Origin: Candidatus Magasanikiibacteriota bacterium
GTDB lineage: Bacteria > Patescibacteriota > Patescibacteriia > Magasanikbacterales > UBA922
Direction of reading: 5' to 3'
NCBI GenBank assembly: GCA_018650645.1
Contig: JABIFP010000025.1
Span: 7,976-71,975, forward strand
DNA length: 64,000 bases
The notes beneath the pieces were generated by a model that worked only from the letters and a program-made list of their open reading frames with translations, was not told the DNA's origin and searched no databases. The translations under genes and the position numbers were made by a program. This document shows, one piece after another, positions 37,195 to 57,839 of the stretch (positions are counted from its first letter, which is position 1; every line of letters begins with the position of its first letter).

Positions 37195-37210
37195 AAAGCA
37201 ACAATAAAAA

Positions 37211-37238
37211 AAGACCCTACGCAAGGGTCTTTTTTTAT
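37211..37238. terminator. bidirectional rho-independent terminator
   Basis: aaaaaaagaccct acgca agggtcttttttt lies between gyrB (+) and the TrmB-like gene (-). Confidence 0.8.
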
Positions 37239-37999
37239 TTATCAAGCTGCTGCCACAAGTTCTTCCACAAAATCATTTGCGACTGTGCAAAGTCGAAACT
37301 TTTTATGCGCATGCCGTAAAGCTCTGGTAAAAATGAAATAATGTATACCGTATCCCCAATTATTTCAATTGAAGATTTCATTGCACCAAACTTTGCAACT
37401 GGTGCATACCGCAATTCACGGTTAAGTGCTTTGTGATCAGAAAGCGATGTGTCTTTGGGATCATCTTGCCAAATAGTATATGTTTGAATACCACGTTTTG
37501 CTCGCTCATTCAAATATGTTTCCCCATACCCCGCATCTAAAAATTGCTCCACAACAGCAAATGATGGCGTAATTCCATACAACTTTTTGCTGTTACTCAT
37601 CAATATTTTTTCAGCAACGGTTTTTATTCCGTCCTTTCCTTTAAAGAATTCCACCTGTGGCATTCCTTTATGCACCGAATCTTCTTGAATAGGAAAAAAT
37701 GGAAGTGCTTTATCTAATGTTTTGCTCATGGTACTGAGCTCCCGTTGCTTTCTTTCAATAATATTCTTTAACTGCGCAGGCGGCTCTGCTCTATATCTTG
37801 CCACACGAGTTGATCCGGTGAGATGAACAATTCCCTTTTGCTGAAGCGTTTCGAGTGCATGATATACGGTTGGACGCTTGATCTGCGTTTTTTTAGCAAG
37901 CTCTGAACCGCTAAAATGAGTTCCGCTAAGAAGGGCCAGGTACACCAGCACTTCATTTTCTGTAAAACCAAATTGTTTTAACAATGCCGATATATTCAT
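37235..37999 (-). CDS. TrmB-family transcriptional regulator
   Basis: An N-terminal winged HTH (LKQFGFTENEVLVYLALLSGTHFSGSELAKKTQIKRPTVYHALETLQQKGIV) and a TrmB-like C-terminal domain. Probable start MNISALL. Confidence 0.65.
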   Translation of the reverse strand: MNISALLKQFGFTENEVLVYLALLSGTHFSGSELAKKTQIKRPTVYHALETLQQKGIVHLTGSTRVARYRAEPPAQLKNIIERKQRELSTMSKTLDKALPFFPIQEDSVHKGMPQVEFFKGKDGIKTVAEKILMSNSKKLYGITPSFAVVEQFLDAGYGETYLNERAKRGIQTYTIWQDDPKDTSLSDHKALNRELRYAPVAKFGAMKSSIEIIGDTVYIISFLPELYGMRIKSFDFAQSQMILWKNLWQQLDK

Positions 38000-38108
38000 A
38001 TATATGTATAGTACCCTGTGCATTGACTGTTGTCAACACTGTCTTGACAGACTACTTATTTAACTCTATTTAGCTATTTTACATAAGGAAGATACTGTCT
38101 ACACCATA

Positions 38109-38137
38109 TTGACAAAATGCTTTTTCTATGCTATAGA
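38109..38137 (+). promoter_or_regulatory. putative sigma70-type promoter (TTGACA-N17-TATAGA)
   Basis: catATTGACAaaat, then a 17-nt spacer, then TATAGA. The same catattgacaaaat motif recurs at 46380. Confidence 0.35.
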
Positions 38138-38169
38138 TAGTGTAGTTCTTTCACAAAGAAAGAGGTCCC

Positions 38170-39210
38170 ATGAGCTCTATTTCACTTTCCACAGAATTCC
38201 GTCTGGCGCGCGAGTACCCTGGTAAAACTCTCCGAGACCTTGCCTTGCACGGCTTTCGTTTGGAGCAGCTTGAAAAATTTGAAGCTGGCGAAATGAATGA
38301 GGACGGCAATCCCTTGATCCAAGGTGCTCACCTACTACGCCTTGAAAAGCACCTCGGTAGTGCGCTGTACCACTTTGCTCCAGACAGTACCCGTTCCAGC
38401 CGATTGCTCCATGAAGTGTACCTCGCGCTGGCGCAGTTGAGTACGACGCCTCTTAAGTTGGCAGACATAGCAACCACACTGCAGCTGAAGACTGAAGACC
38501 TCTACGACGTCTGGAGAGGAAAACGAGCACTTGACCTTGAGGCGGGTAAGGCACTGCTCGGTTTGATCTCTCGTCTGCAAAACTGCGAATTTGCACTACC
38601 TGCGGCATACGGAAGGAGGATCTCCGCCGCAAGAAAGCGAGAAGGCCTTTCTCGAGAGGAACTTGCTCAAGCCGTACGAACACACCACTCCGTTGTGGAA
38701 ATGTGGGAGACTGATGAACTCTACCTAGCCGACGACCAGCATGCCGCGCTTGAATCGGTGTTAGGGCCGATGGAGAAAAGCCCAGCACACTGCAACGTGG
38801 ATCTCACGGCGCTCCTCAAGTCGCAGAGACATCTCAAGTCGAGGAGGCTCCAATTTTGGATCAGCGCAGCAAAGACAATCCGCATCGTGCGAGATGAAGG
38901 AGCCCCGCAGAGTGCTGACTGCCTTACGTGCACAACAGGTGACCCCATCAGAAAGTCTCCCCGCATAGGTAGGCCTCCAAAGATAGAACCTCCAAAAGAA
39001 CCCTGCAATTGGCCCCACATGCGTGATTGCACGCACCAACCAGCGGAAAGCCTCGCCATTCTCAGTAGCGACGAATCACAGCGACTGATGGTGGTATCCG
39101 AACCCAGCGGAGAATTGTGGGCACAGTACCTTTTTGAGAATCTGCACGCAACCGATTCCTACACACAATCCCTTCAATCCTTCCTCCGTGATTTCAAACC
39201 GCTCCGTTGA
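38170..39210 (+). CDS. XRE-type helix-turn-helix protein encoded in a GC-rich island (hypothetical regulator)
   Basis: Cro/C1-type HTH (RRISAARKREGLSREELAQAVRTHHSVVEMWE). ~60% GC. RBS aagaggtcccATG. Confidence 0.55.
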   Translation: MSSISLSTEFRLAREYPGKTLRDLALHGFRLEQLEKFEAGEMNEDGNPLIQGAHLLRLEKHLGSALYHFAPDSTRSSRLLHEVYLALAQLSTTPLKLADIATTLQLKTEDLYDVWRGKRALDLEAGKALLGLISRLQNCEFALPAAYGRRISAARKREGLSREELAQAVRTHHSVVEMWETDELYLADDQHAALESVLGPMEKSPAHCNVDLTALLKSQRHLKSRRLQFWISAAKTIRIVRDEGAPQSADCLTCTTGDPIRKSPRIGRPPKIEPPKEPCNWPHMRDCTHQPAESLAILSSDESQRLMVVSEPSGELWAQYLFENLHATDSYTQSLQSFLRDFKPLR

Positions 39211-39349
39211 GCCCAGCTCCGGAGCACCCCCCTTTTTTTAAAGGGATTTTTTTATAGAAAAAACTGCATACCAATTGATATGCAGTTTCCTATGGTGGAG
39301 CCATAACAGCTCCACCGGTCATGCCGCATTACTGCGGCGCTCCTTATGT

Positions 39350-40036
39350 TCAGTCAGGACTCAGGCGCACCAGCCGGAAGCCCACCGTCGGCGTGAGTGT
39401 GTTCGGGTCGAAGCATGAGAAGTCCTTGAACCCATGCCCCGGCATCGTCATGAAGTTCCGTTGCCCGTGCACGTAGTTGCAGCGGCCCTCGCCATCCGCA
39501 CTCCACTCAGAGACGTTCCCCCAGGGGCCGCGAATGCGACCCGCAGCAAGCTGCGGTACCGGCGTTGGCTTGTTCTTCAAGCAACGTGGGACCTCCCTCC
39601 ACGGACATCCCACCGCCCCATCAGGACCGTCCGTCAGGTGGATGGCAGCCGCCGCCCACTGCACGCGTGAAGCCATGGCGTAGGTACCCTTGTGTGTCCG
39701 CGAGTACCACTCTGCGTAGATCTTCGCATCGTACCAGCTGAGCCGCATCGGTGCGTCGAGCACCTGGTTCAGCTGAGTGAGATGACGCGGATACGGCCGG
39801 CTCGAACTGTTCACGAACTGCGCGTACTCACGCACCGTGACTGGATCACGCGCGATGGCGAAGGCCTTCTTGACCTCCACACGCTGATACCCGTCTGGCA
39901 ACCACCTATCGGTGGACGTTCCCATCTGCGCCTTATAGACGCCGGCCGGAACCGTTTCAAACCGCGGGAGTTCTTCAACTCCCGCCAGTGCGCTGCCGCC
40001 AAGCAGCACACTACATATCGTCATCCAAAAGCGCAT
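39350..40036 (-). CDS. secreted FGE-sulfatase (SUMF1/formylglycine-generating-enzyme-like) domain protein, GC-rich island
   Basis: A signal peptide, then WGNVSEWSADGEG, GHGFKDFSCFDP and GFRLVR signatures of PF03781. RBS gggaggaaagccATG. Confidence 0.7.
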   Translation of the reverse strand: MRFWMTICSVLLGGSALAGVEELPRFETVPAGVYKAQMGTSTDRWLPDGYQRVEVKKAFAIARDPVTVREYAQFVNSSSRPYPRHLTQLNQVLDAPMRLSWYDAKIYAEWYSRTHKGTYAMASRVQWAAAAIHLTDGPDGAVGCPWREVPRCLKNKPTPVPQLAAGRIRGPWGNVSEWSADGEGRCNYVHGQRNFMTMPGHGFKDFSCFDPNTLTPTVGFRLVRLSPD

Positions 40037-40158
40037 GGCTTTCCTCCCTGTTGAGTCTCAAGAAAACATGTATTCTGATATGCTATAGATATCAGATTTG
40101 TGCGGTTTCGTCAATGGGAGGGTTGAAAAAAAGCATGTTTTACGCTACACTCATGCAT

Positions 40159-40440
40159 ATGAAAAAAATACTAGATCAAAAACGACAATCACTCGCCAAT
40201 GTAGATGCAGGACTCCTTGCACTCCTTGAACGGCGTGTTGAACTTGCCAGAGAGTTTGCAACTATCAAAAAAGAACTCGACCTCTCTACTTTTTTACCAG
40301 GAGTTGAACAACAAAAGATTGCTTCGCTCAAAGAAAAGACCCATGATCCGTTTGTAAAAAATGCAATCGAAATTTTATGGCCGGTACTTTTTGGTGTCTC
40401 AAAAAAACTACAAGACGAGGTACGCGCAGAACATAAGTAA
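40159..40440 (+). CDS. chorismate mutase (AroQ class, ~93 aa)
   Basis: LDQKRQSLANVDAGLLALLERRVELAREFATIKKE matches the AroQ helix-1 pattern. The start is ambiguous (ATG at 40135, 40153 or 40159). Confidence 0.6.
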   Translation: MKKILDQKRQSLANVDAGLLALLERRVELAREFATIKKELDLSTFLPGVEQQKIASLKEKTHDPFVKNAIEILWPVLFGVSKKLQDEVRAEHK

Positions 40441-40476
40441 AAAAAAGCGGCCAACCCAAGGGTTGGCGCGCAAAGG
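40441..40476 (-). terminator. rho-independent terminator for the minus-strand GC-rich lipoprotein gene
   Basis: On the minus strand: gccaaccc tt gggttggc, then cgcttttttttac. Confidence 0.5.
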
Positions 40477-40493
40477 TCATGAGGCGTCAGCCC

Positions 40494-40928
40494 CTACTGC
40501 GAAGCGCAGTACAAGAGCCGAACGGCGTAGCGCTGAGGTGCGAAGCCGATGTCGACGACCTGACGGTTGTCATAGTCGCCCTCCGGCATCTCTTCCTCAG
40601 TCTTCATGACGTCGTGGTCGTCCATGGCGATGAACTCAGCGTCGTCGCGTTCCCCCAGCAGCAAGTCCACAGAGGACCCGTTCTGAGAGAGCAGGTGAAA
40701 CTGCAGCGGCTGACTGACATGAATCCGGAGATTCGTGCTACCCCCCGCCGGAACGCTGAGCAGATCACCCCCATCGAGGACGATGATCAGCGGCTCACTA
40801 CCGGCCTGCAGCCTGAGATCAGTGCTTTCGCACGCCCCCTCGCCGCCGTTGACTTCTTCTTCAGCGCCAGGATCACACCCGGCAACCCCGCCAGCCAAGA
40901 TAGCCAGCACCAACACATATCGTTTCAT
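40494..40928 (-). CDS. putative lipoprotein, GC-rich island (hypothetical)
   Basis: MKRYVLVLAILAGGVAGC has a lipobox. RBS ttggaggggaccATG. ~62% GC. Confidence 0.5.
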   Translation of the reverse strand: MKRYVLVLAILAGGVAGCDPGAEEEVNGGEGACESTDLRLQAGSEPLIIVLDGGDLLSVPAGGSTNLRIHVSQPLQFHLLSQNGSSVDLLLGERDDAEFIAMDDHDVMKTEEEMPEGDYDNRQVVDIGFAPQRYAVRLLYCASQ

Positions 40929-41307
40929 GGTCCCCTCCAAGGATCATTTTTGTTATGCAGCATTTGGCCGCATCTGAACAGTGTAGGGTCAAATGAGCAA
41001 TTTGTCAATGATGATATAGGCATTTTTCAGGAGGCCACCCTATTGACAAAAGCCCATTTTTATGGTATAGTTCTGCGTCGAATTGGTGACCTGATTTCAG
41101 CCTAGTTGAGATGAGTTCATCAGTGGTATTTGGCTAATTTTAGCGAAATATCCAATTGACTCACCAGTAGAGACGGAGCTGAGAAGCCACTCTTGTTACC
41201 TCTGTGACAACAGCGGTTTCTCAGTTCCATACATCAACCACCTCTCCTTCACACCTACCTTTGGAGAGGTATTGCTTCCCGCCAATGGCGGGTGATCGGA
41301 GAGCCGC

Positions 41308-42123
41308 ATGGCTCGCCTTTTCGTTCTGTTCCTGCTCGCCGCCCTGTCCACCGCCTGCGGCGGGAGCTGGGAGAACAGCTACGCCACCAAGAACTACGCG
41401 TGGGGTGAGAGCGATGTCACCCCGAAGCTGAACCCCAAGCAGCTCCAGACCTGGAGCAGCCTGACGGGGAAGATCTCCCGGTCCTACTACCCGGACGGCG
41501 TGGCGTTCTCGAAGTACCAGAACGTCGACACCTGGGATGCCAACCCGAATAAGGAAGGATATCACCCGCCCAAGCGGATCTCTTCCAGTACGGACATGCA
41601 GACAACGGAGAAGGCGCTTCTGACCAAAAAGATCCTCAGGATCTGTATGCCGAGCGCCCCGAAGAAGTGCAACAGGTCCACGACCATTCGCCTCTTCGTT
41701 CCCTTCGAGCAGCCGGACTGGAAGGTACACCCGGAGGGCCTCGTCGCCCATCATCTGATGGGCGACGTGCTCACGCAGCAGGATACCTACACGCTGCTGC
41801 TCCACATCGCCACTCAAATCCGGCAGATTCGCCAACGTAGGTTCCAGCAGTCCTGCAACGAGCAGGGCACGCCTGAGAACCTGCGACGAGTGTGCACGTC
41901 AAACATGAAAGAACATGGCTTCCTCCGCGACTTGAAGCCGCAGATCAACCGGTTGAAGAAGTCCCTATCCATCGGAAGGACGATCTCTGGCCCCTACCTG
42001 CCAATCCAGGAACTCCGAAAGGCGGACAGCGCTCTTGGCGACTACCTGGCCTACCAAAAGGGCGGCACCAAGCTGCACAACCACAAGGAGATGATGGCCC
42101 TCGCCGAGAGCCTCCTCCGTTAA
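41308..42123 (+). CDS. putative lipoprotein, GC-rich island (hypothetical)
   Basis: MARLFVLFLLAALSTACGG carries a lipobox and an upstream GGAGAG RBS. It is preferred over the antisense ORF 41221..41835. Confidence 0.5.
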   Translation: MARLFVLFLLAALSTACGGSWENSYATKNYAWGESDVTPKLNPKQLQTWSSLTGKISRSYYPDGVAFSKYQNVDTWDANPNKEGYHPPKRISSSTDMQTTEKALLTKKILRICMPSAPKKCNRSTTIRLFVPFEQPDWKVHPEGLVAHHLMGDVLTQQDTYTLLLHIATQIRQIRQRRFQQSCNEQGTPENLRRVCTSNMKEHGFLRDLKPQINRLKKSLSIGRTISGPYLPIQELRKADSALGDYLAYQKGGTKLHNHKEMMALAESLLR

Positions 42124-42142
42124 TCACTCTCTACTGGCATCA

Positions 42143-42168
42143 GGCCCGCTCCGGCGGGCCTTTGTCTT
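42143..42168 (+). terminator. GC-rich rho-independent terminator ending island 4
   Basis: ggcccgc tccg gcgggcc followed by tttgtctt. Confidence 0.6.
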
Positions 42169-42226
42169 ATACGCAATATCCGCCAAAGCCATAGCGTAGG
42201 AGGACCCAAAGATATCCCCAATCCTC

Positions 42227-42255
42227 TTGACAAAACCACCAAAATTCGGTATATT
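42227..42255 (+). promoter_or_regulatory. sigma70-type promoter (TTGACA-N17-TATATT) for secE-nusG
   Basis: An exact -35 TTGACA at 42227-42232, a 17-nt spacer, TATATT at 42250-42255, ~40 nt upstream of secE. Confidence 0.55.
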
Positions 42256-42295
42256 CTGAATACATCGGCCTAGGGCCGTTTTTAAATACATTCGT

Positions 42296-42509: not shown

Positions 42510-43055
42510 ATGGCTAAACAGACCCTCGACCTTGGAAAACGTTGGTACGTCCTCCACACATATAGTGGATATGAAGAAAACGTAAAGCGAAATCTGGAAC
42601 AACGTATTGATACCTTCGACATGCATGACAAGATTTGTGCTGTTATGGTGCCCAAAGAAAAGAAAATTAAAATCAAAGCAGGAAAGCGTGTCACTGTTGA
42701 AGAAAAAGTTTTTCCAGGATATGTACTTGTAGAAATGGTAGTAACAGATGATTCTTGGTACGTAGTACGTAATACACCAAACGTAACAGGATTTGTAGGA
42801 GCAGGAACAACACCAGTACCAATCGATCCAAAAGAAATGCTTTCACTCCAAAAACGTGTAAGCGATGATGAACCACTGCACAAAATCGACCTTGATGTTA
42901 ACGATTCGATTCAAATCATTGATGGACCATTTAAAGGATTTGAAGGAAAAGTTAGCGACGTGGATGATGCACGTGGAAAGATCAAGGTACTTGTGAGCAT
43001 GTTCGGAAGAGAAACTCCGGTAGAACTCGATGCACTCCAAGTAAAAAAAGTATAA
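42510..43055 (+). CDS. nusG: transcription termination/antitermination factor NusG
   Basis: NGN domain WYVLHTYSGYEENV and a KOW domain with FKGFEGKV. Confidence 0.95.
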   Translation: MAKQTLDLGKRWYVLHTYSGYEENVKRNLEQRIDTFDMHDKICAVMVPKEKKIKIKAGKRVTVEEKVFPGYVLVEMVVTDDSWYVVRNTPNVTGFVGAGTTPVPIDPKEMLSLQKRVSDDEPLHKIDLDVNDSIQIIDGPFKGFEGKVSDVDDARGKIKVLVSMFGRETPVELDALQVKKV

Positions 43056-56996: not shown

Positions 56997-57839
56997 ATGA
57001 AAATACGATTTGATGCAGGAGTCAGCCGAATTGTTGGCTGGAAGGTTGATCCGAGAGGGGAGAAAATTCCCCAATCTCAGCAAGACAGCTTCATTGTCAG
57101 CGAGAAGCTCGGTCTGTTCGTTGTCTTTGACGGCGTGGGTGGGCATGCAGGCGGAGAAGTTGCCAGCGCCATGGCGGCGACGCTTTTGGAAGAGAGCTTC
57201 ACGCTGCTGATACAAGTACTTGAGGTGGAAGCAGCACAGCGCGAACCCTACCGAATCCAATCGGAGATAGAAGCTGCGCTCAGGCGGGCCAGTAGAGCAA
57301 TCTACCACGCCGGCCGCAGAGATCCTGCGCTTGATTACATGGCCACCACAGTCAGCGGCGTCTTCTTCTACGAAGGAACCGCCTACTACTTCAACGTCGG
57401 CGACAGCCGCTGCTACAGGGAGCAAAACGGCGAGTTTGAGCAGATGACGCGGGATCACTCCTATGTGGCTGACCAGCTCTATGAGGGACTCATCACCGCA
57501 GAAGAGGCGCGAAACCACCCAGATCGAGGTGGGATGCACGCGGCACTTGGATTCCGCGACATTTCCGATTATGTCGATGTCCGCTACACACCCTCGCAGC
57601 CCGGCGACGGCTGGATCATCTGCACGGACGGCCTGGTGGACTACGCCGACCCGGACCGATGGGAAGTTGTAGCGTCTTCCCAACTACGCCGTGGCATCTG
57701 CACCGACGAGATCGCTACGACGCTGACCAACCTGACCACCGCAGAAGCCGGTATTCCACTGGGGTCTTTCCCCGGCGAGTACTACGACTACAACAGGTGC
57801 GACAACACCACGGTGATTGCACTGCGCATTTGCCGATGA
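56997..57839 (+). CDS. PP2C-family (PPM) serine/threonine protein phosphatase, GC-rich island
   Basis: VVFDGVGGHAGGEVAS, NVGDSR, TDGL and DNTTV motifs. ~62% GC. RBS aaaaggggtacattcATG. Confidence 0.8.
   Translation: MKIRFDAGVSRIVGWKVDPRGEKIPQSQQDSFIVSEKLGLFVVFDGVGGHAGGEVASAMAATLLEESFTLLIQVLEVEAAQREPYRIQSEIEAALRRASRAIYHAGRRDPALDYMATTVSGVFFYEGTAYYFNVGDSRCYREQNGEFEQMTRDHSYVADQLYEGLITAEEARNHPDRGGMHAALGFRDISDYVDVRYTPSQPGDGWIICTDGLVDYADPDRWEVVASSQLRRGICTDEIATTLTNLTTAEAGIPLGSFPGEYYDYNRCDNTTVIALRICR

Follow-up and report, generated by a model that had tools for sequence, protein, structure and literature searches.

Proteins that have the fold of the formylglycine-generating enzyme (FGE) and no FGE activity form a known class, which includes TvpA, an FGE-fold protein thought to bind ligands, and FGE-sulfatase-type proteins make up the largest category of targets of diversity-generating retroelements (DGRs) (PMC5758913). 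In Patescibacteria, genomic islands and horizontal gene transfer reach up to 13% of the genome (PMC12455944). Here we describe a stretch of 64,000 nucleotides (contig JABIFP010000025.1, positions 7,976 to 71,975; hereafter the window) from a genome of the Candidatus Magasanikbacteria type, in which a gene for a putative regulator with a helix-turn-helix (HTH) of the XRE family, HTH346, is convergent with a gene for a predicted exported protein with an FGE-sulfatase domain, FGE228. XRE regulators, exported non-catalytic FGE-fold proteins and genomic islands of Patescibacteria (PMC12455944) are already known, and the pair belongs to these known kinds. The two genes are located as follows:

38170-39210, plus strand: HTH346, an open reading frame (ORF) of 346 amino acids
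39350-40036, minus strand: FGE228, an ORF of 228 amino acids

Both ORFs are exactly as described in an earlier annotation of this DNA (the original prediction), and they are separated by 139 bp. The probability of a chance ORF of 346 codons in sequence of 54% GC is about 5e-7, as estimated from the base composition, and no long competing ORF in another frame was found over either gene. With a probability of roughly 60%, we consider HTH346 and FGE228 to be mutually unrelated accessory genes, confined to this species and located in a hypervariable gyrB-secE slot, one for an XRE regulator and the other for an exported, non-catalytic FGE-fold module, each of them a single-gene unit. Both would have entered the lineage after its split from the sampled relatives, probably by horizontal transfer from sources of higher GC content and probably in separate events. 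FGE228 would then be exported through the Sec pathway and serve, much like TvpA, as a binding module outside the cell or at the envelope.

The assignment of FGE228 to PF03781, made originally from sequence signatures, was borne out by a Pfam score of 44.1 bits (gathering score 23.3, E = 2.6e-11), and the motifs quoted at that time, GNVSEW and GFRLVR, sit on invariant or near-invariant columns of the family. The Pfam alignment covers only residues 28-132, corresponding to profile positions 7-123 of 255, which is the N-terminal half of the domain. In an alignment of FGE228 with 15 remote relatives from a phmmer search, the entire FGE domain is present in FGE228 in a shortened form, the invariant positions Y107, W110, W127, G173, N174, E177, G219 and R221 are retained, and the nearest sub-group of relatives has a common short C-terminal pattern, GN[LV]xEWSAD..G.Y. 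The profile of this alignment matched ToxD (7SPQ, E = 1e-44), PvdO (5HHA, E = 2e-40), bacterial and human FGE (E about 1e-39), PorK and EgtB (both E about 1e-29) and TvpA (2Y3C, E = 3e-26) in the PDB. An AlphaFold model (AF2) built from the same alignment was of moderate confidence (pLDDT 67, pTM 0.68), and its top Foldseek matches were PvdO (3.5e-7), ToxD (1.6e-6), EgtB and FGE, with a probability of 1.00 and TM values of about 0.5. The N-terminus, MRFWMTICSVLLGGSALA, followed by cleavage before GV at an AxA site, reads as a Sec signal peptide, in agreement with the export signal already proposed for the 228-residue protein:

39980-40036, minus strand: predicted signal peptide of FGE228, residues 1-19, MRFWMTICSVLLGGSALAG, with an AxA cleavage motif, as read from the translation

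True FGEs carry a copper-binding cysteine pair, GGS[FY]xCxxxxC, at a fixed place in the domain (C336 and C341 in the human enzyme), where the sequence reads KGGSFLCHESYC in T. curvata and KGGSYM(C)HRSYC in human. At this site the alignment places VHGQRNFMTMPGH (VHGQRNFMTMPGHGFKDFSCFDP) in FGE228, with no cysteine, and the usual GGSW segment is missing as well. Because the copper-binding pair has no counterpart, FGE228 should not make formylglycine, and the label "SUMF1-like" fails as a statement of function. As read from its sequence, FGE228 is an exported FGE-fold protein that is unable to work as an FGE, the cysteine pair having been lost or never been present. No sulfatase (PF00884 with the C/S-x-P-x-R motif) was found among the genes of the window, which is no paradox for a protein without the catalytic cysteines. 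A PF03781 match in a reduced genome should not be read as sulfatase maturation, and it is in this correction of the annotation that the gene pair itself has its main value.

With FGE itself (SUMF1; 1Y1E, 6S07), FGE228 has in common the Pfam domain and the fold as a whole, and it retains the N-terminal half together with GNVxEW and the GFR motif at the end; it differs in the missing cysteine pair, in the absence of the long FGE insertions and in having no sulfatase nearby. PvdO and ToxD, the best matches in both the profile and the Foldseek searches, likewise have the FGE fold without the FGE cysteines; PvdO is a periplasmic protein without the catalytic pair. Unlike FGE228, around which no such partners occur in the window, these two proteins belong to the pyoverdine and toxoflavin gene clusters, and they are about 50 residues longer. 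TvpA of Treponema denticola is, like FGE228, a small exported protein consisting of a single FGE-type domain of C-type-lectin fold without the formylglycine-generating residues, and its presumed ligand binding at the cell surface is the likeness that we propose for FGE228. The two differ in that FGE228 has no detectable DGR (template repeat, reverse transcriptase and variable region in the 64 kb), a shorter C-terminal half and no GGSW, and their identity is far below the family level. The example of TvpA and of other fold members without catalytic function makes it most likely that FGE228 is an exported or envelope-associated ligand-binding module. It would be a further case of the FGE/C-type-lectin fold used as a small exported module and, as its host is thought to live in attachment to other cells, a candidate surface-interaction protein.

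In a word-indexed search, close homologs of FGE228 and HTH346 were found only in the same species. Phmmer, run exhaustively over 1.84 billion cluster representatives, gave as its best match after FGE228 itself a protein with E = 1.7e-14 and 32% identity; the contigs fetched for five of the nearest relatives have 43-55% GC and are not Patescibacteria-like. Thus, while a PF03781 match exists, the lineage from which the domain came cannot be named, its nearest relatives being at most 32% identical. Some remote FGE-domain relatives with a similarly short C-terminus (L171, 1931-9381; L169; L170) adjoin very large uncharacterised proteins, and at one locus of a remote relative a Tubulin_2 protein occurs with three tandem FGE paralogs, reminiscent of conflict systems.

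HTH346 contains a single HTH of the XRE/Cro-C1 type at residues ~146-199, starting YGRRISAARKREGLSREELAQAVRTHHSVVEMWETDE:

38605-38766, plus strand: HTH motif region of HTH346, matched by Pfam, NCBIfam, PADLOC and PHROG

The matches are to aMBF1 (5e-7) and also to DicA, RstR and PuuR in NCBIfam (residues 143-199), to RmrA in PADLOC (4e-6) and to repressors in PHROG (5e-4; phage repressors and CII-like regulators). All four libraries agree on one segment, which is always the N-terminal HTH of members of XRE-type families. The Cro/C1-type HTH reported originally is supported in this respect, although its Pfam scores stay below the gathering scores, at 19.6-22.5 bits against 27 for HTH_31 and 19.3-21.3 bits against 23 for HTH_3 (E-values for the two of 1e-4 to 1e-3). 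HTH346 shares with XRE/Cro-C1 regulators (PF01381/PF13560) the single HTH and the typical G-LSxxELA...S...WE pattern, but differs in the position of the HTH in the middle of a 346-residue protein, in its unmatched flanks, in the scores below cut-off and in its restriction to one species. No family match was obtained for the N-terminal 140 and C-terminal 150 residues, no relatives outside the species were found among 5.8 billion protein clusters, and a single-sequence AF2 model was uninformative (pLDDT 34). Its sequence suggests that HTH346 is a cytoplasmic DNA-binding regulator of the XRE type, with large extensions of no assigned role. An arrangement of three tandem HTHs was rejected, as Pfam recognises the third segment only and self-alignments were no better than shuffles.

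To place the pair in its chromosomal context, we fetched 80 related metagenomic loci via a NusG anchor (67-86% NusG identity), and gyrB is present in 47 of them. All 47 have the same order, gyrB-secE-nusG, and the distance from the end of gyrB to the start of nusG is 270-3936 bp in these relatives versus 5316 bp in the window; in the two closest relatives (GyrB 80% identical) it is 374 and 865 bp. The excess length in the window corresponds to a lineage-specific block:

37195-42295: lineage-specific block of 5.1 kb in the gyrB-secE slot, with six genes in three divergent pairs split by shared hairpin/terminator regions
pair 1: TrmB-like gene (minus strand) and HTH346 (plus strand)
pair 2: FGE228 (minus strand) and CM_2 (plus strand)
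pair 3: lipoprotein-148 (minus strand) and lipoprotein-271 (plus strand)

A tblastn search of the 80 relatives gave no match to any of the six genes at E<1e-4, with the lone exception of L090, whose slot holds a weakly matching TrmB-like gene; no relatives in GTDB were found via the TrmB-like neighbour. Several relatives (L089, L105, L110, L112, L114, L116, L117 and L120) hold GC-rich ORFs of their own in the slot, with a GC content at third codon positions (GC3) of 0.74-0.96; none of these is related to another or to a gene in the window, and no orthologs of them were found between relatives. Since different and unrelated GC-rich ORFs occupy the same place in several genomes, the slot is a recurrent site for lineage-specific genes. 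This context is more useful than the pair itself: a conserved slot that members of the clade have filled with different GC-rich genes without known relatives.

The base composition of the two genes departs from that of the surroundings. The window as a whole has about 43% GC over a background near 40%, and the neighbouring genes have 39-41% GC with GC3 of 0.31-0.36, versus 62.2% GC and GC3 of 0.74 for FGE228 and 53.6% GC and GC3 of 0.55 for HTH346, so that the original figure of about 60% GC for both genes fits FGE228 and not HTH346. The convergent spacer has 47% GC (39211-39349) and the two divergent promoter regions have 34% and 40%. The GC3 difference of 0.19 between HTH346 and FGE228 (z = 4.8) argues against joint acquisition and suggests different donors or ages. 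The spacer, at only 47% GC, likewise points to separate histories. The block is a mosaic of AT-rich genes (TrmB, CM_2) and GC-rich genes, and GC-rich islands, mostly of a single gene, make up about 10% of the window:

13.2 kb: GC-rich island
29.9-30.7 kb: GC-rich island
38.3-40.0 kb: GC-rich island (HTH346 and FGE228)
40.5-40.9 kb: GC-rich island
41.2-42.2 kb: GC-rich island
45.5-46.3 kb: GC-rich island
57.1-57.8 kb: GC-rich island
60.9-61.8 kb: GC-rich island

The best frames in the islands encode two lipoproteins, a PP2C phosphatase, a coiled-coil protein and several products without family match. As in the genomic islands reported from Patescibacteria (PMC12455944), the genes are atypical and lineage-specific, and their share of the window lies inside the reported range; in contrast to those islands, the genes here are single and without mobility genes, the gyrB-secE slot has been refilled by different GC-rich ORFs, and one island gene stays high in GC across species.

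HTH346 and FGE228 would each form a single-gene expression unit, because each has its own promoter, Shine-Dalgarno sequence and terminator. Signals of this host-like type were legible for every gene in the block, and the strong Shine-Dalgarno sequences mentioned in the original prediction are AAGAGG, 4 nt before the ATG of HTH346, and GGGAGG, 6 nt before that of FGE228. The signals around the pair are:

38109-38139, plus strand: promoter-like site of HTH346, TTGACA (38109-38114), a 17-nt spacer and a TG-extended TATAGA (38132-38137)
39211-39349, no strand: convergent spacer with hairpins at 39230-39245, 39261-39288 (a palindrome, inverted repeat I8) and 39294-39316, which probably terminate both genes
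40037-40113, no strand: divergent FGE228/CM_2 control region with the Shine-Dalgarno sequence GGGAGG (complement of 40043-48) and TTGACG-N17-TATCTA on the minus strand
40075-40095: 21-bp palindrome CTGATAT-N7-ATATCAG in the FGE228/CM_2 control region

The promoter of HTH346 includes, at 38127-38139, the 13-mer TATGCTATAGATA (repeat family D1), a second copy of which is enclosed by the 21-bp palindrome. The 12-mer core, ATGCTATAGATA (13 nt with the flanking T read from the sequence), has exactly two copies in the 64 kb, at 38127-38139 and 40079-40091, and TGNTATAGNT occurs three times, always within the block.

Several other explanations of the pair were weighed against these data. It is unlikely that FGE228 is an enzyme of different chemistry, such as an oxidase or maturase that acts on an extracellular substrate in the manner of PvdO, ToxD or the C-terminal domains of EgtB and OvoA. 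PvdO and ToxD are indeed its top structural and profile matches, and the four cysteines and several His and Asp residues of the mature protein could form a site, but the copper ligands of FGE are missing, and FGE228 is a single domain of 228 residues that does not include the N-terminal DinB-like iron domain which EgtB and OvoA require. Moreover, the NCBIfam models of PvdO, EgtB and OvoA gave 15-20 bits against cut-offs of 360-500 (15 against 500 for PvdO), and biosynthetic partner genes were not found in the window. DGRs are numerous in bacteria of the candidate phyla radiation (CPR). A remote or former DGR target would match the fold class and small stand-alone architecture of the TvpA-type targets (2y3c match; PMC5758913), and a hairpin with a GTAA loop follows the FGE228 stop codon. 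There is, however, no template repeat of 39301-40040 elsewhere in the 64 kb and no reverse transcriptase among the genes of the window, the five aligned contigs, out of 22 with the exact protein, show no difference over the length of the gene, a variant allele differs only at Q51K and L134R, away from the C-terminal part in which a variable region would be expected, and the usual GGSW segment is absent, all of which makes such a history very improbable. The atypical composition, the absence from relatives and the recurrently variable slot would agree with arrival of the pair, or of the whole 5.1-kb block, as cargo, be it of an integrative mobile element or of a prophage remnant. The integrase or transposase, tRNA site and direct repeats that also mark genomic islands were not found: the 64-kb window contains no integrase, transposase, relaxase, phage structural gene, reverse transcriptase, tRNA or Rfam family, and no direct repeats bound the block. 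In other bacteria, a tRNA often lies upstream in the secE-nusG region. Since FGE228 is also without a match in IMG/VR, and the block alternates between AT-rich and GC-rich genes that each have a host-type promoter and terminator, the proposal of mobile cargo is in all probability wrong. A viral origin was rejected as well, the PHROG matches being limited to the generic HTH, and so was a defence system, for which PADLOC gave generic HTH/wHTH matches only. The suggestion of a kinase/FGE signalling module found no support either, as there is no Ser/Thr kinase gene (Pkinase) in the window and FGE228 is a single domain that stands alone; a fusion of kinase and FGE domains does occur among its remote homologs (P0003), and the sole Ser/Thr-signalling gene in the window, that for the PP2C phosphatase, lies in another island at a distance of 17 kb. 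What stands from the original prediction is the observation of an HTH protein convergent with an exported FGE-domain protein; both are of foreign composition and absent from 80/80 relatives.

A regulator and its target is a further possibility, in which HTH346 would bind TATGCTATAGATA or the 21-bp palindrome, repress or activate the divergent FGE228/CM_2 promoters as well as its own, and form one functional unit with FGE228. The presence of exactly two copies of the 13-mer in the 64 kb, one in the HTH346 promoter and the other within the palindrome, speaks for such a circuit, and autoregulation through an operator overlapping the promoter is common in XRE regulators. The motif is, however, largely an extended -10 element (TGnTATAG) with a third, related copy upstream of lipoprotein-271, and may be a mere promoter type; the plus strand carries both exact copies, which fits HTH346 and CM_2 rather than FGE228; the very different GC3 values argue against a joint origin; and a strain with a frameshifted HTH346 retains an intact FGE228. 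We consider the circuit doubtful. An artefact, by which contamination or mis-assembly fused high-GC DNA to a low-GC genome, is suggested by the sharp changes in GC content at the gene boundaries and is nevertheless hardly conceivable. In ENA, Logan and JGI assemblies that are independent of each other, 22 contigs (0.2-1 Mb size class) encode the exact FGE228 protein, with identical junctions and with neighbours that are identical at the places displayed, and five of these contigs, when aligned, were 99.98-100% identical to the window across the gene pair. Because protein and neighbours are the same in independent assemblies, the GC steps are real and not due to a chimera; in addition, the intergenic signals are host-like and islands of a similar type are present in relatives.

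Some results weigh against the interpretation as two unrelated accessory genes of foreign origin. The HTH scores of HTH346 lie under the Pfam gathering cut-offs, and the exact repetition of the 13-mer hints at a regulatory link between the genes. For FGE228 we infer both export and binding, and the two stretches of its model with low confidence, residues 137-171 and 191-207, are exactly those in which one would expect a surface for binding or another active site. The nearest FGE relatives, at most 32% identical and with five fetched contigs of only 43-55% GC, do not point to a donor. Secreted proteins were not enriched among the GC-rich ORFs of the clade, with 9/36 versus 197/816 in a crude count of signal peptides and lipoboxes. 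Finally, a high GC content need not mean recent transfer, as seen from the PP2C gene in another island (56997-57839). A 55%-identical ortholog of this gene is located at the same position, between an AAA_28 gene and the gene for isoleucyl-tRNA synthetase (IleRS), in a diverged species (L172, 289-1125; NCBI metagenome contig). The IleRS sequences of the two genomes are 67-69% identical, and the four-fold degenerate sites at conserved residues are near saturation, at 41-45% identity versus 30% expected for independent sequences. The ortholog nevertheless has 62% GC and GC3 of 0.78, next to an IleRS gene with GC3 of 0.34. The decay of foreign composition should have erased this difference, and the composition has therefore been maintained or the gene was acquired twice at one spot.

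On the strength of this single case, we tentatively raise the possibility that the GC-rich single-gene islands, including HTH346 and FGE228, are a class of genes that some force holds at high GC3 and that are reinserted at fixed slots such as gyrB-secE. Candidates for such a force are biased gene conversion, selection that acts on mRNA structure or codon use, and the continual copying of these genes anew from an external pool. If the persistence of high GC is general, the GC-based calling of islands and the dating of transfers by "amelioration" in these genomes would need rethinking. A GC-rich island was also observed in the closest GyrB relative in GTDB (L008, 17116-20448), with 63% versus 50% GC over 3.2 kb and a gene for a DEAH/HrpA-like helicase of 1110 residues.

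The genes of the window include gyrB, gyrA, secE-nusG-L11-L1, IleRS and genes for type IV pilus, the pentose-phosphate pathway and lactate dehydrogenase, a set of housekeeping genes typical of Patescibacteria/CPR. Among the GTDB species representatives, no GyrB is more than 65-66% identical, and the best-matching ones come from metagenome-assembled genomes of Patescibacteria. The other members of the block are:

40114-40440, plus strand: CM_2, a lone AT-rich gene for a type II chorismate mutase, with no genes of the aromatic amino-acid pathway in the 64 kb
40494-40940, minus strand: lipoprotein-148, predicted, GC-rich, with lipobox VAGC and GC3 of 0.73
41308-42123, plus strand: lipoprotein-271, predicted, GC-rich, with lipobox STAC and GC3 of 0.83

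Public gene calls in several assemblies are on the opposite strand at the lipoprotein loci (a 208-residue ORF on the plus strand and a 177-residue ORF on the minus strand), probably through mis-annotation. An untranslated stretch of about 240 nt (41072-41307) separates a strong promoter (TTGACA-17-TATAGT, 41043-41071) from the start of lipoprotein-271; it matches no Rfam family and may represent a leader or a small RNA.

Six variant sites were recorded in all. The only substitutions in the block among contigs of the same species are L134R (window position 39636) and Q51K (39886) in FGE228, both in L175, and E28K (40859) in lipoprotein-148, in L005; all three change to basic residues and all are in GC-rich genes. 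The HTH346 frameshift is caused by a 1-nt deletion at position 38976 that truncates the protein to 271 residues (L176, sample ERZ27245997), on a contig of 4.4 kb that is otherwise the same as the window. Four of the six sites are thus in island genes, and all four (Q51K, L134R, E28K and the frameshift) alter the protein, which suggests relaxed or diversifying selection, in numbers too small to conclude from and too few for dN/dS. Another contig, k141_786800 (ERZ27250245; L004), matches the window up to position 42677 inside nusG and then shows about 250 differences in about 800 bp through nusG and L11, as expected either from a recombinant or from a switch in the assembly to a closely related species of the same sample.

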